DNA of 60,494 bases, counting the filler, from Hausera hauseri (lineage: Eukaryota), in the NCBI GenBank assembly GCA_046269625.1. It is 9 parts of 9 records of this genome, joined end to end, with 100 filler letters (N's around TTAATTAATTAA, not from the genome) between each part and the next. Parts side by side here need not be neighbours in the genome. Positions count along the whole stretch, not along the records: positions 36,939 to 43,995 come from JBJURY010040666.1; 8 more parts are not named here. One strand, 5' to 3'. Position 1 is the first letter of the stretch. Each line of letters begins with the position of its first letter. This document shows positions 3,170-53,348 of the stretch, in pieces. The position numbers and the translations under genes were made by a program. The notes under the pieces are model-generated. The model ran no database searches, was not told where the DNA came from, and saw only the letters and a list, made by a program, of their open reading frames with translations.

Positions 3170-4790
3170 CGACAGGCTAGATTTAACAACTATTCCTTAT
3201 CTCGTTTCAAAACGTCTTCATCCGAAAAAGACTTCGGTTCCAAAACAACCAAACGAATCGTCAGACGACGATTCGGATGATTACCAGAAGGATAGAAGAT
3301 CAAATCAATTGAACAATCGAAAATCACATTTGTCCAGAATCTCAGGACCTAATCGCACATCCCGAAAGATAAAAATTCGGAATCGCCTATCTCGAATGAA
3401 ATCCCATATTCAAAATTTCCGATCAGCCAAACTCGGTCTTCAACCTTACAACGGTCAGGAGTTACTTCATCTAACTTCTTCGAAAGAAATCGGACAGATC
3501 CCTGGTAAGAAGACACGAATGATCTGCAAAGATATCGATCTGCAGTCTCCACAATACAACACGATACCACCAATCATGGAGAAACCAGTACAGAACAATG
3601 TGAGATTCACCATTATCATTGTTCGGTCGACGAATATTTTGATATATTTTTTTACCAACGATAAATCTTACACAACATCACCCCCTAAAACCTATATATC
3701 TGCCATTATAAGGTCACCCCCTTCAAATGTGAGTATATCTGAGATTGTCGATTTACTTTCACGTTTGAGTATTTATATCGATGAGGAATTGAGAATCATG
3801 TTTCATTAGGTCCCGATAAGTACCATACCCACTTCGAATAATATTTTAAAGACAATCAGTCCAGCAGGTTCGCTCTCAATAGATAGTATGACTTTTTTGG
3901 AATTAGTAAACGATGTACTTGATTTAAAATGGCTACAAAAATTACTATTGCCAACAATCGCGTCGTTGCCTTTGTTGATGGTATACGAGAATTCAAAGGG
4001 GACCAATTACACTGTTACATCGATGTTCTTTAGAATGTTTTTAGGCAAGTTTGTTGAATTTGGTCGCCTCTATTATAATTATATGGCGATGCTGACTATT
4101 TCCCGTACAAATCCAATCATTATTTACACGGGTATAAAGAAAATTGAGGCTGGCCAAAATTTGGTTAATGCAGTTTTTATTAGCTGCCCCAATTTTATTG
4201 AATTTGCTACCAGCCCTTTTTGGCAGAACCATTTTTTTTCTATATTTGTTATGATTCCATCTATTTTCTGTCGTCTCGAAATTTTGAAACACAGCCATTA
4301 TACAGCGAAGGCGTTTGTTGCTGATATATTTTGTAATTATTCCGACACGACTTTTACCTTCGTTGCAATTCTAGACCATTTCAACAAAACACTTCTTTTC
4401 TTTAGTCCTCAGATGATAAATTTCGTCTATTCTATTCAAACGTTGCTTCACTTTATCCTTTGTCCACGACATTGATTGTCGAGATATTTTGCTACTGTCG
4501 ACAAAGTTACTCATTCTAAATTGAAATTTAAAATAGCTTCATTGGGCAAAATTGGTAAACTACGCTTTCACGTTCTGAAGTATTTGACACTCATAGGCAT
4601 TTATGAACTCGACGATGACTACATAGAATTTAATAAAATAGCCCAAACAGCTTGTGGCATTGTTAAATACTCACCACTCGTACCTTGTCCCACCAAACCG
4701 TTCAAACCCAATACCGAACCATCTATGGAAATTAATGGATCTGTAAGGCGACGAAATGGAATCGAGGTACATTATCGTAAATTAACCCTC
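3170..4790 (+). pseudogene. Unknown host-like ORF fragment, possibly a divergent DH-PH RhoGEF
   Basis: ORFs 3309, 3888 and 4476 share one frame broken by two stops. SPFWQNHFFSIFVMIP and IQTLLHF..SRYF..LRFHVLKYLTLI weakly recall the DH end and PH start of ephexin-type GEFs. Confidence 0.3.
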
Positions 4791-4850: not shown

Positions 4851-5066
4851 TTATCATTCTTCCTTTATGTCAATAATAACCTAATACAAACCATATATAT
4901 CACACAACGTATGGAAACGTTACAATTATATGCTTTCGTTTATAACACCACCGCCTATACAGATTTTTACCTAACTCACAACGGTTTCATTTTTACTGAC
5001 CTCACACAAGTCATGGCCTCACACCATCATCTATGTATAAACGTCAATCCTAGGGTTCGCGGCGGT
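4851..5066 (+). other. Ubiquitin-like domain ending in RGG at the Gag N-terminus (family A)
   Basis: 72 codons LSFFLYVNNN...TDFYLTHNGFIFTDL...LCINVNPRVRGG, in frame with gag. Confidence 0.65.
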
Positions 5067-6152
5067 ACGATTGCTCTACTAACTAGTGACACCACCGATA
5101 AAGCGACCACAAAACCCAAACCGATTCTCTACTACCCCAAACCAAATCATCCACCTACTTCAACCGATGCATATTCTTCTCACAAAAATCCTTTCAATAC
5201 TACACCACATTACACTGAATACTTTATAGACAATGAGAAGTCTAGTAAAATCTGGCTCTACTTCCATCAACTCTCGTTACAGTCCAACGGTATCACAGAC
5301 TCGTTATCCAAAGCCCGTAACCTACTTTATCTTCTACCAAACTCTATAAGGGCCTTAATCCATAACTTACTGGACATTTTCCAACACTCTGGCCCTTATA
5401 CACAATTGTTCAATGCCGTGTTAAAACAGACAGACCCTTCAATTGATTCAATAATGCAGTGTTTCTTTAATGAAAACGCAATGGGGACACAAAAACCTAG
5501 CGATTTCCTACGCACCTCGTTGGCTCACTTACGTACTCTAGGCGTCACCAAGGAACATTACCCGGATCTACTTCGACGATATTTCCTTAACGCTTTACCA
5601 GTTCAGATTAGGGCTTTGCTTACGGTTGTGGAAGATTCTACAGCGTTAGATAAACTGGATGAATTGGCAAACAAATCACACGAAGTCTTACAAATCCAAT
5701 CACAACATATTATATCAACCGCAATTACTAACGATGACAATCAATGACATACTTCTGTTGAGCACCAGTTAAATCAACTACGAGCCGAAAATGCGACCCT
5801 ACAAACAACAATAAATAGTATCACTAATAAACCGAACGAGATTTCATTGACTCGACGTGAGGGTTTCATATGTGACCGTAACCGTTCAGTATCTCGTGGT
5901 CGTTCACCTTCACCTGGACGACCACCGATTTGCTATTATCACGATAGATTCGACAACAAAGCACAAAAATGCCACCTAGAGTGCAAATTTTATGATCAAA
6001 AATACCATACTGACAACGTCACTTGCATATCTTATACACAATTCAGACATATTGCACGCAAATGCATTCCAGGTTGCACGTTTAAAAACAAATCACACCA
6101 TGCGAATGTCGAACGCACAACTTTCGTTTCTAACAGTCGCCCAGGTTCTTCG

Positions 6153-6200
6153 TTTACAAAAATTGACTTCGCCGCCAGGGTTTTCGGCAAACACTGGCGA
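6153..6200 (+). promoter_or_regulatory. Putative -1 ribosomal frameshift signal at gag/pol junction (slippery site, TGA, hairpin)
   Basis: CAAAAAT-TGA followed by GCCAG-GGTTT-TCGGC-AAAC-A-CTGGC; same architecture in three other copies. Confidence 0.6.
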
Positions 6201-9200
6201 AGGCCACTCTTCACTTCCTAATAGTCGAAAAATTTCTTTCGCCGTATTCACATTAAAAGCTTCCACCATCGCACCGACACCTCAACACATAGATTTTCTC
6301 ACCGGTTCAGGTGCAGCGATTTCTTTACTACCGCTCACCTTTCCAACTCAACACACTCCAGCAAAAATTAAACCTTTATTCACAGCTTCAGGACAACCGC
6401 TACATGTTTCCGGTACATGTAGGTTTTCTTTTATCCTTCCAAAATTTACTCAAACGTTCCACTGGACATTTACCGTTGCAAATATCCAAACAGTTATTTT
6501 AGGATCAGATTTTCTTTCGCACTATAACGTCCTTATTGATTGTAAACAACGCTGACTGACAAGTGGTCTCAATGAAAAGCGATTCGTTCACGACGACACA
6601 ATTTCGGCTGTCGTACGGATGAATACAGCTCAAAAGCCGATATTAAAAAAATCGTTAAACAATCTTTTTTCTTACAACCATGGCACCTTGTTTTATAAAT
6701 CACTAAAGAACAATGTTATTGACGATTGGGATTTACACAGAGATAAAAGTGATTCTGTTACCACTACCAAATCCTTTGATAAAACTACAAACAACAATAC
6801 CATCTTCAATACTACCATCCTGCATCGAATACCACTTCATTCTCGACCACCAAATAAATTCCGAATTGCTACTGTTACTGATACAGCCAAAGTTACCGGT
6901 AAGACCTCTTTGCTACCACCAAATTTTTCGCAATTATCTGCAAGTCTGCAGCAATTCATCCACGTATCTTGTCACAGAATTATTCAAAAAGATAGGTCTT
7001 TTACACCAGAAAATACCACTTTTCACCACATTGTGACACAACATCAACGACCTATCCGCCAAAAGGTACGTCCTTTATCTCCTCGTCGTAGACAGGCAGT
7101 TGAAACCGAATTTCTAAAACTAGAACGTTCCGGAATTGTACGTCGCTCAAAATCCCCATGGTCGTCACCATTACATGTCGTACAAAAGAAGGATGGAACT
7201 TTTCGACCATGTGGCGATTATCGTCAGTTGAACACTTTGACAAAAATGGATGCATACCCGTTGCCACTCATTTAGGATATCTTAAATCGTCTTCACTCAA
7301 CTGCCATTTACTCTACCATCGATTTATCCAAAGCCTACCATCAAATTCCTGTGGCACCTGAGGATATCGAAAAAACAGCCGTCACTACTCCTTTTGGCTT
7401 ATATGAATATCTGTACATGCCTTTTGGTTTACGGAAAGCTGCGCAAACTTTTCAACGCCACATCGATACTATCCTTTCCTATTTTCCATATGTTCATCCC
7501 TATATCGATGACATATTAATTGCTTATTCCTAAATCAAACAACACGAAGAACATCTCAGATCAATATTTCAACGCTTACACCAGCATAGATTGCAGATAA
7601 ATTTCGCCAGATGACACTTATTCCAGAAGCGTATACATTTTATTGCTCACGTTATTTCTGCCGAAGGTCACTCGCCTCAGTCTGACCGAGTTGAAGCCTT
7701 ACAAAACGTACAGCTACCTCGTACAACATCAGAAATGAGGAGCTTTTTGGGCACCTTACATTTCGTCCGTTTGCTCACCGTTTGCTCACCTTAGTTGTGG
7801 AAAAAACACCAACCAATACTGTGGACTCCTGAACTTGTAAACAAATTCGAAAAGCTAAGAGAAGGTTTAAAAACTATGGAAATATTAGCTTTTCCCAAGC
7901 ACGATGCACAGCTGATCCTCACTACAGACGCCTCCACCACCGCTGTGGGCGCCGTACTTCATCAAATTTATAAGGGTAAGAACCAGCCTTTGGAATTTTT
8001 TTCACGCAAGGTAACACCTCCCGAAACTAGATACTCCACTTTCGACCGAGAACTACTGGCGATAGTTCTTGCTTTAAAACACTTCTCACATTTACTAACC
8101 TCTCGACGTTTCACTATACAGATCGATCACAAACCTTTAATCTATATCATGACGATGAAACATCCATCATCTAGGCAGGAACGTCAGATCTCTTACTTGT
8201 CGACGTTTAATTTTGAGATCAAACACATTAACGGTGTAAACAACTTAGTCGCTCATTTCCTTTCAAGATCCGTTAGCTCCATTAATTTTAAACCTATTTA
8301 CACAAGATCAGCTACAAGAAAACCAACCACCTCCAGACATGCTTAAATCTTTCCGATCTTACAACATTATTGACGGCGTAGCTTTAGACACTTCCAAACC
8401 AGGTCATTCTGTAATAATTCCCGCACCACCTTTACAACAGCAAGCGTTTAACAGTGTACATTTACTGCATCATCCTGGCGCTAAGGCAACTTTTCGCCTA
8501 CTTTACCGGCACGTAATATGGCTGACAATGCATTTCGATGTGCAAGCATGGGTTAAGGAGTGCGTGGCTTGCCAGAAATTTAAAATCACCAAACATCTAA
8601 AGCTATCACTATATCACTTCCCTTGCACATCACGTTTCGAGTCCGTACATATAGATATCGTCGGCCCTCTTTTTCTTGACAACGGTCATCAATTCATTTT
8701 GAACATGATGGATCGCGCCTCACGTTGGCCAGAAGCTGTCCCTCTACGGAGCACTAACACGGACACAATAGCCGATGTTTTCATACACACTTGGATCAGC
8801 AGGTACGGATCTCCTAGGTTTATTATTACGGACCAAGGTACTCAGTTCGAGTCCAATTTATTCAAATCATTAGTCAACCGCTTAGGAATCAACCACATTC
8901 ATACTACACCGTACCATCCCAATCGAATGGTCTTCTAGAGAGGTTCCACAGAACACTAAAATCGTCACTGAGAATCATCGCAGAATCCAATAGTAGTTTG
9001 ACTACTTTCCTCCCGTTAGTTCTTCTTGGCTGATGTAACACCAATTCTACTTCCACAGGTTGTTCACCTAAGGAGGCATTATTCGGAACACCTGTACGTT
9101 CATTATTTGAACTAACTGTATTAGATGACACACCTACAGACTAAGCTATCCGAGCGGCACAGAATCACTTTGTCTCAGTTAGCAAAGATTCATTCTGCGG

Positions 9201-9339
9201 GATAATTAATAATAATAAAACCACTTTTTCTTGCACGTCAATTTCCCCCATGACCTTAGCATATTTTCGCAATTTTTAAATTCAGGACACATGAGAACAC
9301 GGCTGTTGCGTCATTTCCTGTCCGGAAAGTGCACAACTT

Positions 9340-23350: not shown

Positions 23351-23383
23351 GAATAATGTTATGTTGAACAATTGTTTTTGATT

Positions 23384-23480: not shown

Positions 23481-26400
23481 GTCGCAAAGTTAGAACTATA
23501 AAGAATAAAAGAAAGAGAAAAAGTGGAAAACGAAAAGTGTGTGTTAACTGAGCTTAGTGTGTATAAGGTGTTGAATAACTTCGACTGATTTTTCCTTACT
23601 ATATTGGCTGAATGTGACTCTGCGTGTTGTGTGTTTGTGCAGTGTGTTTGTTTGCAGAGATTGAGGTCGGGAAAAAAATTGGTAGATTTTGGTGTAGGCG
23701 TTGTGTCGTGCGAAGATGAAGAAGAAGGTGAAGAAGGAAGAGAGATTGTTGAAGATGGAATGATAAAGGTATTGAAAAGAGTGTTAGAAGACAAAGGAGT
23801 GATGAAAGGTGTAGTGGTGGATAAAGGAAGAGAAGAAAAATTGGAATAGAGATTGGAATTTTGTTGAGTAAAAGAGTGGAAGAAAATGATACAGAAGTAG
23901 TGGTAGAGATAGGAAGAGTGGTAGGAATAGAAGGAGGAAGTGTATGAAATGATGGAGCAAGACTAGGCGCGGAAAAGGAAGATGGAAGTGGTATAGTAAT
24001 AGATGTAAGGATAGAAGGGAGTGGAGGAGTAAGAAAAGAAGTTGGCGTGTCAGGTGGTAAGGTGTCGTCTACAAAGAATGCTGGCTTTAGGTTGGTGATG
24101 TGTACTGTGAAGTCTTTACCGTCTTTGGACATGATGGCGTTATGCTAATATAGTTGTAACAGTTTGTAGGGCCCCAGGTACCGTGACTAGAAACCGCAAG
24201 GGGCTTGATTCTTCAGCCATACGAATTTAGCCGTGTTCAAATCCTCAGGTAAGTATGTTTTATCTTTGTGAAGTATCCTGCAAAACGAACCCCTGGTGAC
24301 CTCGACGGTGATTTTGCGCCGCCCGTATCGTCTCATCTGTGGGAGTGGTGTCCAGGGCAGTTAGTTCGAATAATGAGCGGTCAGGAGCTCCGAATAAGGC
24401 TTCAGTAGGTGAGCATCCTGTAGAAGCGGACGGAGTGTTCCGCCAGCCAAGCAGAACGAAAGAAAGAAGATTGGTCCAACTACTGTTGTACTCTGCGCGA
24501 ATTTTTAGTGACGTTTTCAATGTACGGGGGAAACGTTCTAGGAGGCCATTCGATTGGGGATAATAAGGCGTAGTATAAATGCAATGAATCCCCAATCGGT
24601 TAACAAGAAATTTGAACAGATTGGATTCAAATTGTGGACCCTGGTCCGTGATGATGAAGCGAGGTGATCCAAACCTGCTAATCCATGTGCGAATGAAAAT
24701 GTCAGCTATGGTATCGATGTTCTTGCTCCGCAGAGGGACGACTTCTGGCCATCGCGAGGAACGGTCCATCATGGTGAGAATGAATTGATGTCCGTTGTCT
24801 GGAGGAAGAGAGCCAACAATGTCGATATGTACGGACTCGAAACGCGATATGCAGGAGAAGTGGAACAGTGGTGGCTTTAAAAGCTTAGTTGTTTTGTATT
24901 TTTGGCAAGTCACACACTCCGTAACCCATTCCTTAACATCAAAACGCATTGATGGCCATATTGTCGTTGGAGTAAACGAAAAGTGGCTTTAGCACCAGTG
25001 TGGTGTAGCGAATTTACGCTATTTAATGCTTACCTTTGCAATGATGGTGCGAGAATTATTACGGAATGACCTGGCTTGGAAGTGTCTAAAGCCACGCCGT
25101 CAACAATTGTGCAAGACTTGAAAGAATTAAGCATGTCTTGAGGTGGCTGGTTGTGTTGAAGTTGAGCTTGCGTAAAAATCGGTGAAAAATTAATCGAACT
25201 AACCGGCCTAGATAAAAAATCGGCAACTAAATTATTAACCCCATTAATATGTTTTATGTTGAAGTTAAATGTCGATAAGTATGATATCTGTCGTTCTTGG
25301 TGTGTGGAAGGATGTTTCATAGCTATGATGTTAAGTAAGGGTTTGTGATCGGTTTATATAGTAAAATTGCGAGCAACAAGTAGGTGTGAGAAATGCTTTA
25401 AAGCAAGAACGATAGCCAATAACTCTCGATCGAACGTTGAATATCTGGTTTCAGGGGATGTTAGCTTGCGAGAGAAAAATTCTAGCGGTTGATTTTTTCC
25501 TTTGTGGATTTGGTGAAGCACAGCACCTACTGCAGTGGTTAAAGCGTCTGTGGTAAGAATGAGTTCCGCATCAGACTTGGGGAAAGAAAGAATGTCGACG
25601 GTCTTAATTCCTTCGCGTATCTTATCAAATTTTTCAGCCAATTCAGGTGTCCACTGGATTGGCTGATGTTTTTTTCCACCGCTTAAGTGTTCAAATGATG
25701 CTGTCAATTCGGAGCAGTATGGTACATATTCATGTACAAAGTATTGTGTACCAAGAAAGTTGCGCATTTAGGTGGTCGTACGTGGTAACTGGATATTTTT
25801 AAGGGCTTCAACTCGGTCTGGTTGAGGAGAGTGGCCACCTGATGAAATAACGTGGCCTAAAAGTTGATGCATTTTTTGAAGAAATGGAATTTGTTGAAAT
25901 TGGCTTGGAGATTATGGTGGTTAAGGCGTTGGAATATTGCGAGATGTTCCTCGTGTTGTTTGGCTGAAGACGAAGCGATCAGAATATCATCAATGTAAGG
26001 GTGCGCAAATGGGAAATCTGACAGAATCGAATCAATATGTCGCTGAAAGGTCTGTGCGGCGTTTCGCAAACCGAAAGGTATAAACGGGTACGCGTAGAGA
26101 CCAAAAGGACTATTGTCAGCGGTTTTTTCAAAATCTTCGGGTGCCACTGACATTTTGTTGTATACTTTGACCAAATCGATGGTCGAATAAATGGTAGTTG
26201 AATTAAGGCGATGCAAGATATCCTTGATGAGTGGTATGGGGTAGACATCCATGATGACCAAGTTGTTAAACTTTCGGTAGTCACCACATGGTCTAAAAGT
26301 ACAGTCCTTTTTTGTACAACGTGTAAAGGTGACGACAAAGGAGATTTGAAACGGCGTACAGTGCCGGAGCGTTCTAGTTCCAGAATTTCGGCTTCTACGG

Positions 26401-28212: not shown

Positions 28213-28735
28213 ACATCCATTCCTTCCCACTGTAGTCTGCCTGTCTCTCTAACTTGCTTACAATTCCGGCGTTCTAGGTTCATTGGAATTGGTAGGGTCG
28301 TTGGCTTGATTATGGATAAATATCCGTGAATTAGTCCACAATGCAAGATACTGAGAAATCGTCACAACATGCATTCTATACCATCTATTAAGACTAACTC
28401 TCGTTGCTGATACAGAACGTAGCTTTTCTCTTTGTTTCTAATTTATGCGGTCTCGCATCCTCGCACATTTCTAAATCCATCAATAAATACTTTTGGCCAA
28501 GTTTGAATTTGTCACAGTCATACATTATAACCGCTCCCATTTGTCTTATTAACATAATAGCAGTTAGGAAATTAATTACCCAGTTTGATTCGTTTCCCTG
28601 ATTATTTCCGGTTAATTTTCGTAAAATATCTTCACCTCTACTATTACTATTGCTAGAAAAGGGCCTATTTTGATGTTCTTCTTCTTTTTCAAATAATTTG
28701 GACCAGTTTACTTCTCGGGGCAATTTCCTGGCAGC
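28213..28735 (-). mobile_element. Family B fragment B2: N-terminus of the chuvirus-like glycoprotein
   Basis: PREVNWSKLF..NWVINFLTAIMLIRQMGAVIMYDCDKFK..LMDLEMC, HCGLIHGY; homologous to 46840-47330. Confidence 0.85.
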
Positions 28736-29079
28736 NNNNNNNNNNNNNNNNNNNNNNNNNNNNNNNNNNNNNNNNNNNNTTAATTAATTAANNNNNNNNN
28801 NNNNNNNNNNNNNNNNNNNNNNNNNNNNNNNNNNNTTACTTCTATTTACACAACCGACAAAAGGCAAAGAAAACCTTTAGTGATTGGGTTAAAAAACAGT
28901 ACGACAGGGTTCTTAGCGACACAATTGATCCCCTCATTAAAGTAATTGATAATTTCAAATATAAATATCAAATTGGAGTATGTAATATATTTTCGGGAAT
29001 TCTCAAAGCATGTAAAAATTGGAAGAAATTGTTTTGTATCTCGATCAAATTCTCCCAATTATTAAATTTCGTTTATGGT

Positions 29080-36834: not shown

Positions 36835-38368
36835 GGGANNNNNNNNNNNNNNNNNNNNNNNNNNNNNNNNNNNNNNNNNNNNTTAATTAATTAANNNNNN
36901 NNNNNNNNNNNNNNNNNNNNNNNNNNNNNNNNNNNNNNTCGGCCCTGCTCCTAGTTGAGCGAAAGGAGCAGTTAACTGGCTACAGTGTGGGACGTATTTA
37001 TGGACAAAATGTAAAGTCCCAAGGAAACTACGCATATCAGTAGTAGTTTTTTGATAGCTCGATGTTTTGTAGCGGATGGATTCTATCAGGCTCTAGATTG
37101 TGGCCGTCAGGTGTGATGACGCAACCAAGGAAATTTACCTTTTTCTGAAAGAAGGAAGATTTTGAAAAATTCACTTGCAAATTGTAGTTGTGCAAGCGTT
37201 GGAAAACTAGTCTGAGATGTTCTTCGTGTTGTTTGGGCGATACCGATGCGACTAGTATGTCATCCATGTATTGATATGCAAATGGCAAGCCTGAAAGAAC
37301 TGAATGTATATGCCGTTGGAAAGTTTGTGCTGCGTTTTTTAAACCGAACGGCATGAATGCGCTCTCGAAAAGACCAAAAGTTTTTAAAATGGCCGTTTTT
37401 GGGATGTCATCTGGTGCTACCGGTATTTGGTGGTAGGCTTTTTCGAGATCTATGATTGAAAAAATCGTAGTCTTGTGTAAAGAATGCAATATATCCTTTA
37501 TCAACAGTAAAGGATAAGCATCCATGGTTTGGTTACTATTAAGTTGTCGATAGTCTCCGCAGGGACGGAATGTGCCATCTTTCTTTGGGACGACATGAAG
37601 TGGTGATGCCGATGGAGATTTAGAGCGGTTTATAATTCCAGCTTGCTCGAGTGCAAAGAATTCTCATTGTACTGCATGTCGACGGCGTGGGGAAAGTGGG
37701 GAGGGGGAATTTCTGTCTAACGGGCCTAAGGTTTTCTGTGACGATATAATGAAATGTCGTGTTAGCCGGTTGAAATGCTGGGCCTTTTTTAATTGTATGG
37801 AAACAAGATTTAGTCAGATATTGATGCATTTCTTGGCTAAGCATAGTAAAAGCTGTTGTTGTCACGGCAGTGGACTTATTGTGGGAAACGCTAAAAATCG
37901 AGTCGTTCTTGTTTGCGTCGGCTGATGGTTCTTTTAATATTGATTTTATAGTTGAGATAAGTTGCATGGTCGGTTGGTTATTTGCAGAGGTCGGTTTTGT
38001 TAAACCACTTTTGATGATCCGACGTTTTTTACAGTCTACAAGGAGGTTGTAGAAAGATAGGAAATCAGATCCAAGTATTGGAGATTGTGTGTTGGCAACG
38101 ATGAATGTCCAATTGAAAATATCGGAGAATGGTGGTAGAATGAATGAGATTTTGGACGTGCCGAGAATGTGTAAAGCTTGGCCGTTGGATGTGTATAGTT
38201 TAGTGTTAGATGGTGAGATAATTGGTGCTTTGATGAATGGTGGTAACAAAGAAACAGCAGCCCGTGAGTCAATGAGGAAGTTGATTGGTTGATTGGGTTT
38301 GGATGTTAGGAAGGCTTTTAATGTAAAAACGGCATAGGTACGGCTATTTGAATGAAAGCGTTTGCCTG

Positions 38369-38411
38369 TGCCAGTATGTGCCGAAACATCTGGCGACGTT
38401 GTCAGTTTTTT
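38369..38411 (-). promoter_or_regulatory. -1 frameshift signal A AAA AAC + TGA + hairpin
   Basis: Gag frame ends CCA AAA AAC TGA (38402-38404); the -1 frame continues into the protease; hairpin GCCAG-ATGT-TTCGGC-ACAT-A-CTGGC. Confidence 0.7.
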
Positions 38412-39478
38412 GGGATATTAAGATATGTAGAGTCGGGAGGATTAAGATGGATTTAATTGAATCGACTGGAAAACGTACAACTGTTAATGCAGTTTCGGGC
38501 TTTATTGCTAAACCTATTATGGTAAATGCAAATGATGTCGGATTTTTGAAAAGCTGGTGTAAAGAATCTGCAACCCAAACAATATTTGTTAGATTGGTTC
38601 TTGAATTTAGTGTGGTCGTAGCATACCATAGGTCGAGTAGGGGACCTGGCGGATCTTGAATTGTTCGATGAAGCACGACTATGATTAGTTGTAGATCGTT
38701 CTAGTCGCGGCATGGATAAATTGTCCAGTTTAGACGTTAAAGTAGAAATGGCTTGGTGTATTGCCGTGTTTTCAGCCCTGAGGGCGTTTATATGGTTATT
38801 CTGCGCTGTGATTTCGGCACTGGCTGGTGTCATAGGCGGTTGTATTGTGGCTGCGACAATAGGAGTATGGTGTGTGTTTATTATTTCATAGCTTTTATCA
38901 GCCAGTTGTTCAAACTTTTCTAATGTAGCGGTGTCTTCAACGACGGTTAGTAAAGCGCGTATTTATTTTGGTAACGATTGGAAAAAATATCTGCGCAATA
39001 AATCAGCGTTGTTGATTGGGTTCACTCCCAACTTCTTTAATTGGGTCAAGGATGTTTGTAAAAATTCGGAGGGTTTTAGTGTGACTATGGTGTTTTCATT
39101 GAAATATTTTTGGATAATATTATCCAAAGGAGGCTCCCTTTGTTTAATTATGGCATTGAATAGTGTTTCATATGGGTCTACCCTCTGAAAAATTTCGGAA
39201 AGATTTGGTAGTAGTGATTTAAGGTTGTTCGGTAGAAGTATTAATAGGCTATTGGCCTTGAAGAAAGGATCAGTTGTCTTATTCAATTTTAGCCACTGTG
39301 TGTGAAATTCCAGCCATGTACGGCTGGAATGTTGTTTGTCTGTGAAATAGTCGACGCAAGAAAAATTGACCAAAGGGGATGCTGCAGGTAGGGCTAAAGG
39401 ATATGGCTTTAGAGGAACATGTATGGTAGGAATATCGATGAGTTCCTGATGGTCGTTTAATGCAGGTTTGGTGTCGGA

Positions 39479-39716
39479 ACCACCAAATAGGCGTGGACAT
39501 AAAGTTATTATTAGGGGTGAAGGTGGGGATAGGAAGGATGATATTAGGTCGGAATAATGAAGTTGGTATCTGTTTATGCTTAGTGTGTAGCCTTTTAAGT
39601 TGATGCGATGAGACAAATCTACGGACAAATCCGCTACTGTTACTTTAGTGTGTAATCGGTGTGTGTGAATGTTTGTATTAGAAGAAAAGGTAGATAGAGA
39701 AAAAGATGTGCGTCAT
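39479..39716 (-). other. Ubiquitin-like domain ending in RLFGG at the Gag N-terminus (one frameshift)
   Basis: MTHIFFSIYLF(fs)SNTNIHTHRLHTKVTVADLSVDLSHRINLKGYTLSINRYQLHYSDLISSF...IITLCPRLFGG. Confidence 0.7.
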
Positions 39717-40959
39717 TTTACGGGTATAGTGCGCCACCGGGGACACGGTCGCAAACGAAATCCCTGCGCTGTAAAGGTTGATCTGTCCAGTTAGGATGGT
39801 ATCTGGGGCATTGGATCTGGATATTACCATGAATATTTGATCAGTTAATTTGGAGAACGATAAGTCATTTCCTATTGTTCGTATATTAGCTGGTTTAGCA
39901 AATGGTCTTTTAGGTTTCAGTACCTTGTTTGTAGACTCAACGAGTAAAAAAGTGAATTTGTAATACTTAATTGCATTAAGTATACTGGGAGATATTGAAT
40001 GTAGTGATTGGGGTACTCTTTTACAACGTATAACAAAATAGAAAGGTAAGAAATTATCCGACCTTTTTTTACATCCTAAGTCCAGTGTTTGTAGAGCCTG
40101 GGATCACTGTAATTATTCGTTCGAAGTCAGTATGCGAATGTCGTTGACGGTTTTGCCGTTCATCTTTTGCTTTAGCGAGATTGGCATCCGTAGAATTGCC
40201 TTGAGCTTTCAAATACAAGTCGGGTCTGTAACGCAATTCGTTCCTAGCATTATTTACTTTATACTGATTGTCTGGGAATTTTGTGTGGCGATATACAGAT
40301 AATCCTTCGGTTCGTTTTTTTTGCCAATAGTGATTCAATGGGTATACTTACAAGGTAAGTTATAAGACCTTTCTTGTGTTTCCAATCTTTGAATATGGAA
40401 GACACTGTTTTGCTCCTGGAATCATTATTAGCCACAATGTCGTAGAGATCTGTCCACGATTCTAGCAGATTGTTATCTTGTATGTTTGGTAAGTTATCGG
40501 ATTTTTTAACCGATGAAAAGTATTTTCGATACATGCAGCTGTGGATCGTGATTTCGAAACCTTCGGCTTAACTGCGACATTCTCGTTCTTTTCTGACTCG
40601 TTGGGCAAAAGACAAGGTCTGCAATAAGTACAATATAAGAATCTCAATTTTTTGTAAAGTGCACGTGCATACGATACCAGCTATCCGCGCGAATTCTTTA
40701 AAATTATTTATGTTATACAGATCCAAATCGAGCAAACGGAAAACTCTCAATGAGATGAAATTGGGATATTCCTAGGGTAAAGGACGTTTGAACGACCTGG
40801 CGAAGGGTTCGTAATCTATTTTGTAGGCATCATAATATAAACGAACAGGATCATAACTGTTCATATTTAGTTTGAGCGTCGGCGGGTGTGTTGTTTAATA
40901 ACTGGGTGCAATATAAACGCTTTTGAAAACTTAACGATGTTTCCAATTCTTCTCGATCA

Positions 40960-42000
40960 AGCCGTGTTGCATCTCCGTGAAATTCATTCAAGTCAAGAGG
41001 CCGCATTTTTGTCGCGTAGGCTCCAACAGCCTGTGGCGGGTAGTCCCATAGCTCCTTCAGTAGTTTCAATAAGTCGGCCTGTTCGATTTCGATTTCTGAA
41101 CCGTAATCGATTAATTTCACACGAATAGGTTCCGCTTTTTTCGCAGTCTTTTGAAGAAGTTTAACACATTCAAAAACGTCTTTGGATTGGCATGCGGCGA
41201 TAAGTACGAGTTGAATAAATTTGGCATTAACACCATGGACTTTATGGCGATGGCTAGAATAGTTGTTTCTCTTTAATTTGATCTGTATATAATCGCATTT
41301 GAATGTCTCAGTAGAAACCTCTACGGAATGATTAAGAACACGGATGTAGAAATGACTGGGATTGTCAAAGTATAAAATCAGAAATTCGATGTACCCCTTA
41401 TTCGGAAGGACAGCTATATCAACTTCCAGTTGGAGAATATAACGTCCATGACACGATGGTAAAATACATTCACCATTCGCTTTTAGTCGTAGACATATTT
41501 CATCCATATCCTTTGAGAGTAGAAAGTCGACTGCTTTGTCGTATAGTCCATCTGGCCTCTCACGGTCACATCGACTTAGAACCGAGCGTAAATAATAAGC
41601 ATTCTTTGGACTGAATTCATTCGGATTTAAAAAGATGTGGGAATGACAATGAGATGTCTCTTTAGTTTTGGGTTTAGATGCTGGTAAGAATGGAAATTCA
41701 GAAAATCTGTCTCTCAGGAAATTTAATTGTCGACCCAATGTTTCTTTTGTAACATCGACGTGAAGCAATGTATGTGCATTATATATCGATTTCGCAGTTT
41801 GTGTAGGAGCCTCGTCCGAAATTAAAAGAACGGGTATTTTAACGCATCCTTGATATTGATTCCACTCGTCAACAACACCGAACTCAGGTGCGCTATGGGC
41901 ACCGAGCATTATCTTCAACGCGTACGATACTTTATGACTGAGATATTTTTGTGTTCATTATTTCTTTGTCATCATTGGCCAATATGATCGGCCTTTTTAT
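40960..42000 (-). pseudogene. TDRD12: TDRD12/Yb-family fragment: end of helicase-like region, Cys/His linker, extended Tudor
   Basis: VLLISDE..NAHTLLHVD..LGRQLNFLRDRF; ICLRLKANGEC..C.GR..LPNKGYIEFLI..PSHFYIRV; VKLIDYG..LLKL..YPPQAV..MRPLD. Confidence 0.72.
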
Positions 42001-42179
42001 ACTAGCCTCCGTTAGATCGGGATATTGAATTAGTTTTTGGTACATATCGACTTTCGTAGTGCAGTCGTCGACAATGATCTGATTCGGTCGATGAATCGCA
42101 ACAGTTTCCTCAGGATTGTTTATAATAATGTCAAACTCTGTAGTATTTAATGGAATATTTTATTTTTGTTTATTAAATA

Positions 42180-42563
42180 TAATCCCATAATCGACCATTT
42201 CTGCCATCCAAGGAATATAAACGATAGCAAGAAACCAATGCTGGTCTTCACAAACGGGAATAATGATGAAGTTTTTTAAAAGTATGTCAACATTTTTGTC
42301 CACTTTGTTACTTGCCGATGACAAATTTCCGGTGTTTCGTTTTTCGGTTCCCGGCCATTGCCGATAAGTTTGGTATTAAAAAGACAATTAAAGATGTAAG
42401 TCATTTCTCGCTGTTCGTCTGTGAGAACTCGGTGAAAAATGTAGGCCAGATATGCATTTATTATGTTGTCATTAAGTACTTTGGAATCTTGAAGACATTT
42501 AAAATCGAATTTACTCGGATCCATGCGACTCACCTCCAATGTGTCACTAGGTTTATAATACAC
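42180..42563 (-). pseudogene. Ulp1/SENP (C48 peptidase) catalytic-domain fragment
   Basis: DFKCL...LNDNIINAYL, YIFNCLF.TKL, VTKWTK(fs), NFIIIPVCEDQHWFLAIV (catalytic His); no catalytic Cys seen. Confidence 0.85.
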
Positions 42564-43179
42564 TGTCGGTTCTCTTTTGGTTCTTTTCTGACTTTTTATG
42601 AATAATTCTCTGGGCGACTTATGAATCCTTTTTAAAAATATCTTTCGAATTATCCGGCAATTTTTTAGTTTCTGAAAGGTACAATGACCATTCGTTAATA
42701 AAACCTGTCTTCTCTAATTTTTGTTCCTTACTGTACATTTGTTCTTTGAATTCATCAAGACTTTTCATATAGTTGAGAAACCTTTAATTTTTCGCCATAA
42801 TTTCATATCATTTCATTATAATGTTCGAAATATTGAAGAAAGTTCGGTATATCCAAACAGAACCAAATAGATCCATAAAAAATTGTTCGATTTTTTGCTA
42901 ATATTGTGACCGTTTATCTCGAATTTTGAAAATATTGATTTGAAATGAAATTCATAATAACAGTCTGCCAATGAGAGTTTTAATAAACTATTATTTCTAC
43001 AAAATTGAAGTTTTAACATCTATAATTTTTATTTCAAAATTCGAAAGTGCAATATCATTTTCTCCAACAGCCATTAATACTTGAAACTTCAATAACTGGT
43101 CATTCAGCGTTAGTTTATTTTTTGTAGTAAATACCAAATTTTTACTAAAACAAATATATTTCATACGAATTTCTATTTC

Positions 43180-43760
43180 TTCACAAAGAAATGACAACTG
43201 TTGGCTCATCAATAAATCTTTCAGGTTTACCCGTTGATTTCTATAGGTTACGTAGATTGCTCCAACAACTTTATCACCCGACACTTCTTTTAGATATGTA
43301 ACATGTACAATTGAATTACCTTCGCAAAGTTTGATAACAAATCTGTGAATTGCTAGAGTCCAGCGATCAGGTTCTCTAACTCGAACATTAATTCGTGCTC
43401 CTTCCGTCATAACACTTATCCCTGATAGTCTCAATCCCGATAATTTGATCAACTTTGCAGTTCGCTTTACTACCTGAACTGTTTTTCCGTAATCTATAAA
43501 TAATCCCTCTTAGCCGACTCCCGATGCTTATTTACTGATTTGGAATCGTTTCAAATTTCCTTTGTTCATGGTCAGACAGACCATGTGCAAAAATATTTCT
43601 CGACATGGAGTTAACTGTAAATTTTGAATTTGATTACAATTCAGAGGGGTTTTGTAAAATAACCCTTGATCGATTCTGAGAAACAATATAGGTTCGGATA
43701 CTGTGATTATTTTCACTTGGACCATGACAAAATAGCTTTCAATTTCTGACACCAGTCATA
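43180..43760 (-). pseudogene. TDRD12: TDRD12-like N-terminal extended Tudor domain
   Basis: VQVKIITVSEP, GLFIDYGKTV, RWTLAIHRFV.KL, IYVTYRNQRVNLKDLL; colinear with the 40960-42000 fragment. Confidence 0.6.
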
Positions 43761-46029
43761 TTTTCGTACTAATAAAATCACGATTGCAAAAAATAACTAT
43801 TATTGGAAGTTACAGAGAAAACCATAAATATATTCATTGAACTATAGACGGAGTTCCGTCATATAGTTCCAAGAAAAATAAAAATTTAAATATATAATTT
43901 TTCACGATACAACTTGACATATAAATACATATCCTTGGTTAGAATCGAAAAATATACCATACATTACTCTGAAATTATTGCATATTTGATTTCTTNNNNN
44001 NNNNNNNNNNNNNNNNNNNNNNNNNNNNNNNNNNNNNNNTTAATTAATTAANNNNNNNNNNNNNNNNNNNNNNNNNNNNNNNNNNNNNNNNNNNNGTGTC
44101 CCCAGAAATATTATTAAGACGGAAACAGGAATTATAATCATGGATTAAAAGCGGAGTAAAATTTGCAGAAGGATGGAAAAAAATGAAGATAGAGTCGACG
44201 TAAAAGTCACTAAGGCTCAGATGCTACTGACTACTTTAGAGGCAAACCCCAAATTGAAGAGAGTAGTCCGTAATTTAGAACGTATGATGGACGAAATTCG
44301 GTACGCAATGATTAAACGGCTTAAGGAAAAACCGTTTAACCATCGAAGTAATATTGATTTAGAAATATTGGATATAGATCCGTTGGATATTCCTCCTTTG
44401 ACGGAGATGATAAAAATCGCATTTGCTACGCCCAAACAATATACAAACCTAGAAGATCGACTTAAAATAGAAAACGAAAAGCGAGCACAGATTTATAGCT
44501 TGAGGAATTGAATTATGTCCCCAAATCACGAGGAGGCTCAGTATGTAGTTAAGGCTTGTATCGTAGAGTTGGACGAGTACAAGGACGAGTTTAGTTATGT
44601 CGGCCGGATTATGAATTTCCTAAGAGGACCAGACGATGAGTTAAGAGGTGCATATAAGATGTTAGATAGTGCTATAATGGCAAAACCAATCATCGCAAAT
44701 CAATTATCGGAATGGTCCGAATAAGTAGTGCGATGAAGCACATTGGCAGAAGACCGCAAAACGGAATTTCCGCAAAGCGAGCCAACGGTAAAGAAACAAT
44801 TAGAAGAAAGTGCACATGACCTAGGCACAATGCGGATAGAAGTAGATATCCGTACTCAATTTGAAGCGCTACAACGACTAAAATTTATGGAAAAGGAACG
44901 TGAAGCGTTGATGATGGAGAAAATCTACAAACTGATCGAAGAGACAAACTTTACGGAAAAACGGAATATGATTTACGATGTAAATTCAAAGTTAAGGATT
45001 GTCCGCCTAGAAGGGATCCAACACTTAACGGGGAAACCGATTGCCGAAATTTTTGTACAAGACATTGAAATCTTAGACATTTGTCCAGGACATCGAGAAA
45101 TGCTAACAGACGTCATAAAATTCTTACATAAACCACAAGAATGGATGGCCGGATCGGATCAGAATTTTCATACCATATTTACGAAAATAAGCAACGACCC
45201 ACATTTTAGTTTTCAGGAATATAAGTTTGCAAAGAAATTGTTGGATGCAATTGACCCTGACTCAAAGGTTATAAATGAGATGCATGAGTTAGCCTATTTA
45301 TTGGTGGATATGGTAGAAATCAGTGATGAGAAGATGATGCAATTGATGCCCAAGATACAGAATGTAGAAGAAACATGTACTAAAACGAAACAAAGAGCGA
45401 CAAGGTTAGATTAAATAATAAAAGAGCTTGAAATCTATCAAAACAAATATGCTTTTACCCAATCAGAGATTAAGAATAAACGAGAATATGTAAAAAGATG
45501 ACAAAGGGATGTGATTCTTCAATTGACAGATTATCACCAGAAGGGGCCGATTAACCCGAACGAATTGGGTGAATTACTGAAAATGATTCAGTATGCTTGT
45601 GAAAACGGAGTAGGTTTCCGAACTACGCAGATGAAGGAAATACAACCAAGATTGAAAGAAGTTAGGGAAAATGTACAGAAAGCAAAAACAATTGGGATAG
45701 ACACTGGACTTCCATAGGTCAGTAACGAGCCGGAATGGGATGCATACTTCGACGAAATGCTGACCGAAAAGCCTATGACTCCAGTACAATTGAATGAGAT
45801 AGAACCATGTCCGCAAAACAGAATATTCAACGTGGAGATGCTACTGGATTCAGCGCTAACTGAAAAGGATTTGATTGAATTAATTAACGTAAATATTACA
45901 AAAAATAAATTACGACAACTTATTCCAACTTTAACTAAATTGTCCTGTAAGAACACGATTTATAGGACGGTGCCGAAACTTTTGATAAGGAAATATGCTA
46001 AAATTTTAAGGACTAAACCTGAGACAGCG

Positions 46030-46248
46030 ATGAAAGTGATGGTATCATCTGAGTAGATAGACGAAAAAGAATGTGAGTTGACCACATATTCCTATGTAAA
46101 AGACGTGCGAGAATGGTTATTGAATAATGGCGGAACAAATGAGCTAAATTATAGATTCTACTTTAGAGGCAAAATACTCGACGACCTAGAGCAACTAATA
46201 GATGTAGGAGTTATCCCTGCCGAAACAAACCGAATAGTAGCAATAATA
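46030..46248 (+). other. Ubiquitin-like domain without C-terminal GG (family B)
   Basis: MKVMVSS..ECEL..YVKDVREWL...YRFYFRGKILDDLEQLIDVGV..RIVAII parallels ubiquitin [21 protein letters not shown]. Confidence 0.7.
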
Positions 46249-46965
46249 GCTAACGAACAGACAAATGAAGAAGCCACACGTAAGGTTAAAGCAGAACAAT
46301 GCGTAGGACAAATTATGGGAGTTCGAGATGCTGCAATGTATTTTGAGTACTTACAAACGGACAAAGATAAGAAACAATACGACATAAATTTAGTTCCACT
46401 GAGTGGAACAGCCACTAAGGGTCCAAGACTGAAATGCCCAGTAGGCAGACCTAGAAAAGTGCGAGAAGAAGTGGATTACAATGGATAGTTAATTAGAGAA
46501 TTAAGACAGATGTCAATTCCGACTCTTAGTCCAGATAACAAAGAATTAAGCGAGTTAATGAAAAAATTAATACGAATTGTAAATTATTCCAGTTTCCGAG
46601 GGGACGTATTAGAAGATAAAGAAAAGATAAATTTCGATGCAGCCAAAATGATACGAAGTTCACGTTTCAAATTATCGAAAGGTAACTTAACTGAAGAATC
46701 GGTAATCGAGAATACCATGGTGGAGAACACCAACGGAGAGTTGAGAAAAGTGTTATTATATTTAACTATGAAGATAAATCCTAATCGACAGAACAAAATT
46801 AATAGGGCTATAAGCTTAGCACTGAAAGCAGAAAGAAGAATGCCTGGAGAAGTAAATTGGGCAAGACTGTTTTATAAGGAAGAGGACAAAAGAAACAACA
46901 ATAAACTCGACGATATGTTACGTAACCTGATAACGTCAGACGTTGCAGGTCGAAAGAATGAATCA

Positions 46966-48780
46966 AACTGGCTAATTAGCTTGCTCACTTTAATGACGCT
47001 AATAAAGCATATAGGCGCTGTAACCGTCTATGATTGCGACAAGTTTAAATATTCCTTGATGGATCTGGAAATATGCGAAGATGCTAGACTGCACAAACTG
47101 GAAACGAGGGAGAAAAGTTACTTCCTGTATCAGCAACAAGAATTGGTATCGTTAGATGAAATGGAGTGCATGCTGAGACGATCGCATAGTATTTTTCACT
47201 GTGGACTAGTACACGGATACTGCTTTATAATCAAACCAACTACTCCTCTAATTCCGATGAATTTAGAGCGTCAACATTGTAAACGAGGTAATGAAACCGG
47301 AAGAATACAATGGGACAGGATGCAATTGGAAATGCAACCCGGAAAATTAATCAGAGAATACAAAGTAGTAGCTGAAAGGCTGGATATGCATAGCGGACAT
47401 TGAAGTGGAGCAGAATACGATACCGGTAGAGGATTAGAATCAAATGTAATAGTTGTGGATTTCTACGAATCAAAAATGCGATCACAGAAGGTAATGTTCC
47501 ATACTGTCACAAAGCTATACACTGAGAATCAGAAATGTCATTTACAAGACGGGACCTGTGCTTTTAGGAGTTCGATTATAATATGGGAACCTCCTTCTGG
47601 AAGAAATTGGTACTTTATTAAAATTAAAAAACTAAAGTTCAATAAAACTACAGGAAGGGGATATGTGGACAAATCGGAAACTAATTCGAAGCACTTGAGG
47701 ATGTGTCAGAACACTCTACACCTACTATTCTAATTTCGGATCAGCATGGATTGAAATTTGTTAAAAAATAGGTGATGTCTCGCTGTGATGTAGTGATGTT
47801 TGCTACGAATTATCAAGCGCTTTCCTAGCGGAAACAGAAATAAACGCCAAAACTTATAAGTTAGAAACACAGGATGTACGTATCAAAGATTACCGGAAAA
47901 ATAGAGATGATTTCTTCTACTATAAAGGACAAATTGGAATAACGAAATTATATCACAAAATGATAATGAATGACTGCAAATTGGATACTGAAATCATAAA
48001 AACTAAAATGGCGCTTATATATGCAAACCCAGAATTGGCCTCTCTAATAATTCATATGAGAGAAGGAATTTTCGGTCGGGTAACAGGCGAAGTATTGCTA
48101 ACCTATGAATGCGAAAAGAGAGAGGTGCCCATCAACATGGAAGAAAAAGGTTGCATTCAGGAGCTTCCTGTCATTTATCAAAATATTCCAATGGTAGCTA
48201 CAACGTTGACAAGGGTGTTACTGGATAACGTTACCCAACCGACTATCCTTAAGAATTGTAAGGCATGCTTAGGAGAACCTATGTTTAGGCGTAGTGAAAC
48301 AGACTGGGTTAGTTTGCCAAATGGAGGCATCACTGTAGCTCCAAATAAATTAACAGGGACGAATCTTGCAAAATGAATTACAGACGATAAATTTCAAGAC
48401 ACCTCGTCAAAATGTATATACAGGCCGAAGAAAATTAAGGCTTTCAGACAATTCCTTGCCTTTCCACGACAACGAACACATGAGTTAAATCGAGCTATGG
48501 CGTCTATAGTAGACGATACACGATATCAGGCTAAATGGGAATCATTACTCAGCGTAAACCACTATCAGAGAGTAACAACAGAAATGCTCTACAAAATTTG
48601 GGGAAAATTTTTGATTTTCGGACAAGCCGCACTCGGATTCTTAGCGATATATTTTCTGATACAAATGATTAAGGCAGTCATCCAAGCAGTAATAAATGGG
48701 TACGAAATATTTACATTAACCGGATTTTTATGTAAAATACTGACTGCGATCATAACGCCTTTTGGAAAATTCTTGAATGC
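46966..48780 (+). pseudogene. Chuvirus-like (class III, gB-type) glycoprotein: signal, ectodomain, membrane region
   Basis: WLISLLTLMTLIKHIGA|VTVYDC..SLMDLEIC, C..RRS..HCGLVH, TGEVLLTYEC, CIQELPV.Y, TRVL, WGKFLIFGQAALGFLAIYFLIQMIKAVIQAVINGY. Confidence 0.85.
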
Positions 48781-50867
48781 ATAAGAAGAAAATGTATGAA
48801 AATCGGACGAAGAACGCCATGTTGGCTACTATAATCGTAAACGAAGAGGAAGGCCTATATTCTTGCGAAAGCGAAAACTTACAAAACCGAATTCAGGAAG
48901 AAATAATTCAGATGATGACGAACCTAAGGGAGGAGAAGTACCTAGGAATAAATAGACATAAGACGTACTCTGTCGTTAAAGCGCCATTGCCAATGCTACC
49001 ACCTACCGCTCCATTTTACGAAGATTTTGATAAACAATCCATGAGCTCATATCAGACGGCAATCTATAAAAGAACAATTGATGTAGAAGATCCTTATGGG
49101 GGGACAAAACGTTACGGAATTCTACGGAAAATATGCTACCGACAATCCACAGATGATCCCAGGATATTGTACTCACTGAGGGAACCTTGGAATATAGAAA
49201 CTAGATCAATGATTTGGGACAATCCAAGGTTAAAAACTTTCAAGAATACTGAATTATATATTAATAATCGAGAACCATTAATCAGTACACATGAAGCGGA
49301 AGAAGTACGCATAAAAAACAACGAATTATACCCAAACGAAGAATTAAGACAATTATTAGAGAATATAATATCCTCTCCCGAAATCCGAATTAATGGACAC
49401 AAGATATCGGCGGCGAAACGCTCAAAGGATACACCGAACTGTTTCGAAACAGTAATAGAAGGGAGACCCTTTGCCAAAATCATTATTGAAGATAGGGAAG
49501 TTTATGCCTTAATCGATACAGGATCGGAAATGTCTTACATTAAAAATGATTCAATACCACAAACTCTAAGAGGACAATTATACCCTCCATCCGCAAAAGA
49601 CCCAGAAAGTACGGGAGTTTTTGGCCAAATGTCGAAACCATTGTTTAAATGGAACCCGGAAGTTCTATTAGTTGGACAAATTTTCCGGCATGAATTTGCG
49701 GTTATGGAGCAATTAACCGGTGACGTAGTTTTAGGATGTGATTTACTAAAGAGACTACCAAATATAGCAGTCGACCTACAAACAGGGAAGTTAATAGAAA
49801 TCAGACCAAATAAAGGCGTGAAAAACGCTAAGGACAGAAAATTTGGAGAAGTGTGGATACCAGTTGACAAAAACATTCCACCGAGAACAGAAATAATAAT
49901 TTATTCCCAGATACAGCAAGATGACGATCAACCGGTGTATTTTGAGCCAAAAGATACGTTAGATCCGAATATATTACTCAGCAACGTATTAAGAAGAGTA
50001 CACTCCGGTCGAGTACCAGTCAGAATAGCTAATAACGCGCAAAGTCCCGTTAAGCTCCATGATTATACTACTTTAGGAGACACGTATAGAGTATCGTCAA
50101 TAAATATTGAAGAAAAGCCTTATATGTATGCCGAATTTCCACCTCATGTCGAAACTAAGTTTTTACCTGAGTCTTATTGTCCATTCTGCGAATTGCTATG
50201 CCGATATAAATCGATTATTGCTAAAGACGAAGGAGATATCGGTAGAGCAAAAGCATTAAAACTGACTATTCCGCTTAAGAAAAAGCCTGGTTCGAATGAC
50301 GAAATAGACTTGGAAGACCAAAAGATGCCAAAATGGTATCCGCTGCCGCATTCATTAAGCCCGAGATAACAAAGGAAGTTGAACGAATGCTTAAAGCCGA
50401 TATAATCAGACCTAGTTATAGATCTTGGTATTCACCGATCCTCATAGTTAAGAAGAAAGGAACTACGAAACATCGATTTTGTATTGATTACAGAGCCTTA
50501 AATAATCTTATGATGAAGGATTCTTTCCCGGTACCGTCGGTCAGAGAGGCGTTAGACCTACTCTCAGGACCGAAATGGTTTACCACTCTAGATTTGCAAT
50601 CCGGACATTGGCAAGTGGAGATAGAGGACGAAGACCGCTATAAAACGGCATTCAAAACTTATGATGGCGTTTATGAATTTAATATTATGACGTTCGGTAT
50701 TACTACCGGACCAGCCATATTTACAAGAATGATGAACAAAATGTTAATGGGATTGGATCATGCTTTTNNNNNNNNNNNNNNNNNNNNNNNNNNNNNNNNN
50801 NNNNNNNNNNNTTAATTAATTAANNNNNNNNNNNNNNNNNNNNNNNNNNNNNNNNNNNNNNNNNNNN

Positions 50868-53266: not shown

Positions 53267-53348
53267 TGGTGCCCGCGTCGACCGTCGCCCTCCGGCCCAT
53301 TCGGTTGGGCACGGCCGGGTTTTCCGCTGTCGAGGCGTCGGGCACATA
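53267..53348 (+). repeat. GC-rich family A LTR-start fragment, inverted relative to the adjacent element body
   Basis: Homologous to the reverse complement of 23384-23466. Confidence 0.6.

Follow-up and report, generated by a model that had tools for sequence, protein, structure and literature searches.

Two Gag leaders in the window

The window (the whole stretch of 60,494 nucleotides that was analysed) is animal DNA in which short contigs are joined by N-linkers of the form N44-TTAATTAATTAA-N44 (10361-10460, 16906-17005, 22104-22203, 28736-28835, 36839-36938, 43996-44095, 50768-50867 and 55807-55906). Because the linkers join separate contigs, the parts flanking a linker are not true neighbours. 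One Ty3/gypsy family is present as six pieces, with matches to RT, RNase H and integrase. Of these, two alone retain the 5' end of gag, copies A2 (approximately 4850-9220, plus strand) and A4 (minus strand, 39716 to 36939, where the contig ends). Stops and frame breaks mark both copies as decayed. The order Gag, RT, RNase H, integrase is found in the window pieces together with the intact pol frames of two relatives, L004 and L010.

In A4 a putative ubiquitin-like domain (39479..39716, minus) lies directly before Gag, with a frame break near its first strand. It ends in the tail LCPRLFGG (39479..39502, minus), a predicted cleavage signal with the cut after GG and before Ser. The motifs TVADL (39640-39626), YTLSINRYQL (39589-39560) and CPRLFGG (39499-39479), the last followed by SDTK, are read in a single frame that is stop-free from 39712 to 38966 (249 aa) and continues into Gag, in agreement with the initial annotation, which had placed LCPRLFGG directly before Gag SDTK. 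The A4 Gag (38456..39478, minus) comprises a Pro-rich linker, capsid helices and two CHCC-type knuckles (38623-38570, with one ligand changed, and 38530-38477), and is interrupted by a stop at 38965-38963. A broken pol (36939..38417, minus; RVT_1 E 1e-32, protease region assigned by eye) follows and ends at the contig end.

The same annotation gave the leader as about 78 aa from an ATG at 39716, which has to be revised. This ATG lies in a different frame from GG and its frame closes after 12 codons; since the GG frame of A4 contains no Met, such a product needs a frame break, and the off-frame position of the ATG is explained by the broken state of the copy. In the ATG frame a stop-free stretch, a possible leader, extends over 39681..40103 (minus), with 129 codons upstream of the ATG; there are no stops upstream, as against 6 and 12 in the other two frames, a result equalled in 2 of 3000 shuffles. 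A homolog search with this stretch gave no match. When an X was placed at the break, two scorings (26.9 vs 24.0 bits and 23.6 vs 21.5 bits) mildly favoured 39690-39678. The break probably lies there, to judge from the open upstream frame and the slightly better first strand (2-3 bits). A contig from run X1 spans 39286-39772 at approximately 86% identity, with 70 other letters and no gap, which argues against the frame break being private to A4.

The A2 domain (4851..5066, plus) ends in VNPRVRGG (PRVRGG, 5049-5066, plus) and is followed by Gag (5067..6218, plus; knuckles at 5931-5984 and 6024-6077, the second degenerate), which is broken by a stop at 5745-5747, and by a broken pol (RNase H and integrase; 6556..9221, plus). 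The leaders of A4 and A2 share 11 of 67 positions (16%) and their Gags 65 of 130 (50%), so the leaders have as little identity as had been claimed. BLASTP aligns only the last 12 residues of the two leaders, and the linker adjoining GG is unconserved between the copies. TVADL and YTLSIN, which the annotation regarded as retained, are present in A4; the A2 residues differ and the hydrophobic pattern alone is common. LCPRLFGG and VNPRVRGG share GG, the P5 Arg and a hydrophobic P8, and a six-frame scan of the window (120,984 residue positions) finds the motif PRxxGG twice, both times at these Gag junctions. The window has no other ubiquitin-like leader; the next profile matches are short pieces without GG.

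No paired LTRs are found on the window's short contigs. An 83-base GC-rich repeat occurs at 23466-23384 (minus) and 53267-53348 (plus), 87% alike; the copy at 23.4 kb is preceded by a G-run and TG where piece A3 ends (3'), like the start of an LTR, and an ion-channel piece comes after it. A matching LTR directly upstream of A4 or A2 was sought and rejected, the alignments being no better than those of shuffles. Long pyrimidine-rich, low-complexity tails follow integrase in A1 (2200-3110, plus) and A3 (23500-24000, minus). The 5' end of A3 is replaced by a fragment of a second LTR-type family, which is found at 44096-50767 (plus), with a related piece at 10524-13465 and a fragment at 28221-28594. 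In this family, which is broken by stops, a retropepsin frame is preceded by a chuvirus-like fusion glycoprotein (PF24664, E 3e-18, 2e-15 and 9e-6).

A Gag lineage with the tail and predicted fold of ubiquitin

Two homolog searches gave five relatives. A profile that included the leader, run against 1.84 billion representatives, found 4308 hits, and the best 150 of them were examined. Metagenome contigs yielded 14 loci; single-protein locus searches with P0001 in metagenome or viral contigs returned nothing, as did alignment searches of viral contigs. In a Gag-core tree (FastTree, 146 rows, midpoint root, rows without the core left out) the window copies fall in a clade (support 0.80) with two CHCC knuckles. 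The lineage as used here is 40 proteins among the best 150 of 4308 hits, 38 taken from the tree and two (P0042 and P0049) assigned by Gag sequence. A2 and A4 are decayed members of it.

A hydrophobic-x-GG motif lies 15-75 residues before the first Gag Trp in all 35 lineage proteins that have at least 70 residues upstream, and in one of the five shorter ones. Outside the lineage it occurs in three of 10 long proteins, two of them with true ubiquitin-like domains, a further 83 being too short to judge and 17 lacking the anchor position. In 41 aligned tails P5 is R/K in 34 (and neither in 7), P4 is hydrophobic in all 41 and P8 is L/V/I/A/F in 37. GG itself is present in 41 of 41, a circular count because the alignment was chosen for GG; the 35 of 35 is not circular. 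The rows are related rather than independent and include near-copies (L001/P0042, L007/P0005, L013/P0010 and L006/L013). The proposal that relatives be checked for R and GG is thereby answered in favour of both positions. The conserved pattern reads as ubiquitin's own tail, [RK]-L-x-G-G with a hydrophobic residue at P8. Pro is found at P6 in only nine of 41 tails and was rejected as part of the motif; of the suggested selection on PRxxGG, then, what stands is a tail conserved across the lineage, with the Pro incidental.

The low identity of the two leaders and the fact that A2 and A4 are both dead might be taken to mean that GG acts as a flexible linker, or is where the aspartic protease of the element cuts, and that the ubiquitin likeness is a functionless relic of one capture. 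We find this scarcely credible: the motif is retained in every informative member though Gag identity among them falls to about 20-30%, the adjacent linker is unconserved, and retroviral proteases of the aspartic type favour hydrophobic residues at their cleavage sites.

The position after GG is also restricted. Pro is never found there (0/41, against 44/410 in the next ten positions), nor is Arg or a bulky hydrophobic residue, and S, T, M, A, G or V is found in 34 of 41. First residues of this type belong to the stabilising classes, and the cut could chiefly serve to pick the first residue of Gag, setting half-life or N-terminal chemistry as an N-degron switch, with the leader incidental. There is a precedent in SDE2, which exposes an N-degron when cleaved (PMC6486553). 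A plain Met start would, however, yield the same small residues without ubiquitin, Met stands directly after GG in five of 41 rows, and the frame held open through the primer site (below) would be left unexplained, so that we regard the choice of first residue as very unlikely to be the main purpose of the cut.

Four short lineage proteins (P0027, P0032, P0033 and P0041) have no ubiquitin-like domain. In P0041 a primer-site-like peptide seems to lead straight into a two-knuckle Gag, reflecting either loss or the ancestral state. P0090 and P0138 are single-knuckle Gags with a ubiquitin-like domain of their own, ending in RLRGG followed by Met; they lie far from the main lineage in the Gag tree, nested among single-knuckle Gags, and possibly represent an independent capture and second origin.

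The AlphaFold2 model of the A4 domain (41 rows; the first approximately 11 residues come from a frame that is possibly not coding) has strands at 4-10, 14-20, 42-46 and 69-73 and helices at 26-37 and 57-60, with pLDDT 74-93. Foldseek places ISG15 and ubiquitin in the top rows for this model (best E 2.4e-3); VIA-align of the predicted domain gives Z 9.3 and r.m.s.d. 2.3 over 72 residues, and the next domain is PEG10 capsid-like (Z 8.2, r.m.s.d. 2.9 over 78). A single-sequence protein-language (Atlas) search with the 78 residues of A4 gave 0.93 to a PF00240 ubiquitin cluster, the best three matches being unnamed clusters. Because the A4 alignment held ubiquitin-like rows, A2 was folded from 27 rows without a Pfam ubiquitin match (E up to 0.05). 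Its predicted fold is that of A4, with ubiquitin and ISG15 again the top Foldseek matches (TM 0.73-0.74 by target); the Foldseek E-values of both window copies are above 0.001. Both leaders are therefore predicted to have the beta-beta-alpha-beta-beta-alpha-beta ubiquitin (beta-grasp) fold. The models and the homology described next bear out the ubiquitin-like character first ascribed to the two leaders, and the structural alignability of the N-termini is supported by the match of both models to the same ubiquitin/ISG15 folds.

Pfam, PF00240 included, gave no ubiquitin match for the window leaders, and a PDB sequence search with them detected nothing. PF00240 matches 13 of 36 relatives scanned at E up to 0.05, four of them above the curated cut-off; P0008 and P0042 reach 80 bits, and four of 11 Gag frames from the metagenome loci score 68-86 bits. 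The relatives form a graded series, from near-authentic ubiquitin to domains unrecognisable by Pfam, which shows that the domain descends from ubiquitin. For the window copies the case for homology to ubiquitin is indirect. A profile built from the leaders of 33 relatives, with no window rows, finds A2 at E 1.7e-7 and A4 at E 6.7e-4, first and second among 1074 stop-free window stretches. The A4 match weakens to E 0.04 without the tail and to 0.23 without the six nearest relatives, and A4 falls outside the top four when tail and near clade are both removed from the profile.

At the positions that we take to correspond to Arg42, Ile44, Arg72 and Arg74 of ubiquitin, which serve its activation and its recognition by receptors, A4 retains the Arg72 equivalent only, and more of the four are retained in a minority of relatives. 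The Arg42 equivalent is R in five of 41 rows and the Arg74 equivalent in 14 of 41; the Ile44 column is mostly Thr or Ser. As the Arg42 and Ile44 columns are mostly lost and the tail is conserved, selection acts on fold and tail, not on the receptor surface. The same columns bear on whether the domain stays attached or is cut slowly, as a folding aid, a degradation tag or a binding module by which Gag levels are set. Numerous ubiquitin-like domains are integral parts of their proteins, an internal Ubi2/SUMO-like domain occurs in the planarian Burro elements (PMC6431247), and the dN/dS of the domain body (0.31-0.44) indicates constraint beyond the tail. A protease that requires the fold would, however, also constrain the body, an uncut domain needs neither GG, R/K at P5 nor avoidance of Pro after GG, and the Thr or Ser of the Ile44 column, which ubiquitin receptors read, does not suit a binding module. 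A permanently or largely attached domain is in our view unlikely.

Near-authentic domains (L001, L002, L003, L005 and P0008) are scattered on the Gag tree (19-row subset). L005 groups with L008/L009 (100) and L002 with L007 (81), and the domains of L007, L008 and L009 are strongly diverged; in the domain tree those of L008/L009 group with the P0009 domain (80). The dN between L003 and L007 is 1.18 for the domain, against 0.22 for Gag. These patterns suggest that the unit has been replaced by fresh ubiquitin or swapped between elements.

The leader, the primer site and pieces of host genes

The domain is found before Gag in 12 of the 14 metagenome loci; L004 begins downstream of it and L014 is interrupted at that point. 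The Leu-type word TGGTGTCAGAAG is likewise found in 12 of 14, and no Trp-type word in any of the 14. Upstream of A2 and A4 a Trp-type word does not occur beyond chance, and an 11/12 match to the Leu-type primer site at 43743..43754 (minus), 4 kb upstream of the A4 domain, may itself be due to chance. In Steamer TGGTGTCAGAAG is described as a tRNA-Leu primer site (PMC8905726).

Word and domain are both present in nine loci. From primer site to domain the Gag frame is stop-free in eight of these (45-166 codons, 19-32% GC), some of which are not independent of each other, and each open leader frame was matched by 0-81 of 2000 dinucleotide shuffles; the exception, L005, has four stops in the interval. 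An in-frame Met lies at the primer site or on its LTR side in all eight open-leader loci, and L001, L007 and L013 have no Met between primer site and domain. Tandem repeats inside the leader frames have spacings of 36, 39, 48, 75 and 78 bases; AT-rich repeats outside them have spacings of 10, 17, 34, 51, 71 and 77 bases. The close pair L006/L013 has dN/dS values of 0.29 (leader), 0.44 (domain) and 0.11 (Gag), based on few changes. A purine tract, a TG start and the primer site are present in L001, L002, L007 and L008. The contigs of L002, L007, L008 and L010 have identical ends of 99-120 bases, and are therefore taken as circular assemblies, roughly 4.9-5.5 kb long and with a single LTR; in L010 the gag and pol frames are open. 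To judge from these frames the domain usually lies inside the protein, with a longer leader ahead of it, and is not the start of the protein that the initial annotation took it to be.

The leaders have no sequence in common between subfamilies and are rich in hydrophobic residues. If cleavage is real, its point could be the released leader-ubiquitin piece, acting as a decoy or becoming a host conjugate. The hydrophobic leaders would agree with this, as would the near-authentic ubiquitin of some members, apparently refreshed repeatedly, but most members, A2 and A4 included, lack the Arg42 and Ile44 equivalents, the Arg74 equivalent is R in a minority of rows, and a leader without common sequence is hard to reconcile with a function of its own. 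We consider a role for the released piece quite unlikely.

Host sequence is found upstream of both window copies. A DPAGT1-like piece (human residues 103-358; 3870..4637, plus; E 2e-54, one stop inside) is in frame with the A2 domain and Gag and ends about 70 codons before the domain; the A2 frame has two stops in 555 codons, compared with 39 and 32 in the other frames. Upstream of A4, a broken Tudor domain and a broken SENP7-like piece (40854..42713, minus; E 2e-5) lie on the same strand and are candidate parts of the element. The SENP7-like piece is not treated as the cutter, since it is broken and is seen in no relative. Several predicted relatives also begin with pieces of host genes (PRMT, CNOT1, H2A, SCC3 and RING). 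The idea that all such stretches before the relatives' Gags are gene-model artefacts was rejected, because A2 shows one in raw DNA; P0021, 1323 aa on a 4274-base contig, also speaks against an artefact, the DNA check covering few of these stretches. Capture of mRNA by LTR elements is known (PMC5131818). For the window, cargo capture is only a lead, since an in-frame DPAGT1 piece has a one-in-three chance and insertion into a host retrocopy could account for it. Elsewhere in the window an uninterrupted host-like piece (20350-21873, plus) reads TBP and then an in-frame dUTPase, and further uninterrupted pieces resemble a ligand-gated ion channel binding domain (23120-23962, minus) and, weakly, a chromodomain (17845-18240, minus); all of these are possibly captured cDNA.

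A broader proposal is that the unit works as a universal uncoupler, with anything captured between LTR and gag, pieces of host mRNA such as DPAGT1 included, translated as disposable or released cargo at no cost to capsid assembly, and with worn units refreshed from the mRNA of host ubiquitin or swapped between elements. We put this forward tentatively, at somewhat less than even odds; if true, the retrotransposon would be a vehicle for gene capture and expression that depends on host deubiquitinases.

Proposed processing of Gag and comparison with known systems

We propose that the ubiquitin-derived GG domain is a host-cut processing signal that would free Gag from a long and variable leader, a reading to which we assign a probability of roughly 0.7. 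Translation of the first frame would begin in the LTR and pass across the primer site and the variable leader. A host deubiquitinase would then cut after GG; the two intact pol frames (L004 and L010) contain no deubiquitinase domain, which would make the cutter a host enzyme. Gag, freed with a small first residue, would go on to assemble. The purpose of the domain may be a clean Gag N-terminus whatever lies upstream, captured host cDNA included.

If this is right, the lineage entrusts the first cut of capsid maturation to host deubiquitinases, a dependence undescribed for LTR elements in searchable papers. It would also explain the 5' region as RNA signal (LTR and primer site) and coding sequence at once, able to take in host cDNA. 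The domains of the lineage grade from true ubiquitin down to a fold that can hardly be recognised and has kept only the tail, a natural series in which the minimal rules of deubiquitinase recognition are directly testable. There is a practical warning, too: gene callers misplace the starts of such Gags and label them host-gene chimeras.

The CHCC knuckle occurs twice in each window copy, with one degenerate in each, and two intact knuckles are present in most relatives; the Gag tree places the lineage beside single-knuckle DUF7041 Gags. In the relatives the pol frame differs from that of gag and overlaps its end. These features recall the CsRn1 clade of Ty3/gypsy elements, which includes CsRn1, PwRn1 and AgCR and has a CX2HX9CX3C knuckle, overlapping gag/pol frames and the order RT-RNase H-integrase (PMC2582038); a DUF7041-type N-terminal domain of Gag in the relatives is a further likeness. 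As described in that source, the CsRn1 clade has one knuckle and a Trp primer site, whereas here there are two knuckles, a Leu-type primer site where one is seen, and a ubiquitin-like domain before Gag. The kinship proposed in the initial annotation is thus supported by the knuckle and not by the primer site, and for want of the Trp site we file the lineage as CsRn1-related rather than as a member.

Ty1 gag begins within the LTR and, like the present frames, runs through the primer site; to our knowledge, neither Ty1 nor LTR-mediated retrocopies have a ubiquitin unit that separates the upstream piece from Gag. LTR-mediated retrocopies are alike in that pieces of host mRNA are captured inside LTR elements, often in frame (PMC5131818). 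The giant gypsy elements Burro/GYPSM1 of planarians have a ubiquitin/SUMO-like domain in the first frame (PMC6431247), deep in a 4,900-residue polyprotein after Gag, and the available text mentions no GG cut site; here the domain precedes Gag in elements of about 5 kb. Proteases of the OTU and Ulp1 type are described in DNA transposons (PMC2836005). The literature covered, to which Repbase reports, subscription papers and supplements did not belong, holds no description of ubiquitin before a retrotransposon Gag.

Parallels in mechanism are found among host fusions. USP5 cuts the SDE2 domain, less than 20% identical to ubiquitin, and mutation of GG, of the P5 Arg or of the P8 Leu blocked cleavage (PMC13572447); FUBI-eS30 is cut by USP36 (PMC8354635). 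Both have a diverged domain ending in GG, and a host USP removes it to free the functional protein, as we infer for Gag, and the P8 and P5 positions that matter in SDE2 are those conserved here. As far as these sources describe them, however, SDE2 and FUBI-eS30 are each one host gene whose protein begins with the domain, and in SDE2 a motif after the cut is conserved; here a variable leader precedes the domain and what follows GG is free to vary.

Ubiquitin insertions are also found in cytopathogenic pestiviruses (BVDV Osloss, CP1 and CP Rit; PMC8310069), where captured ubiquitin stands behind foreign sequence and before a viral protein, and host C-terminal hydrolases give that protein its authentic N-terminus. 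The pestivirus insertions, as reported there, arise sporadically by recombination and place a near-exact host ubiquitin before NS3, whereas the unit described here is fixed in an old lineage, has mostly diverged beyond the reach of Pfam and stands before a capsid protein. The principle of ubiquitin processing is thus known; its proposed use by a retrotransposon Gag seems to be new to the searchable literature.
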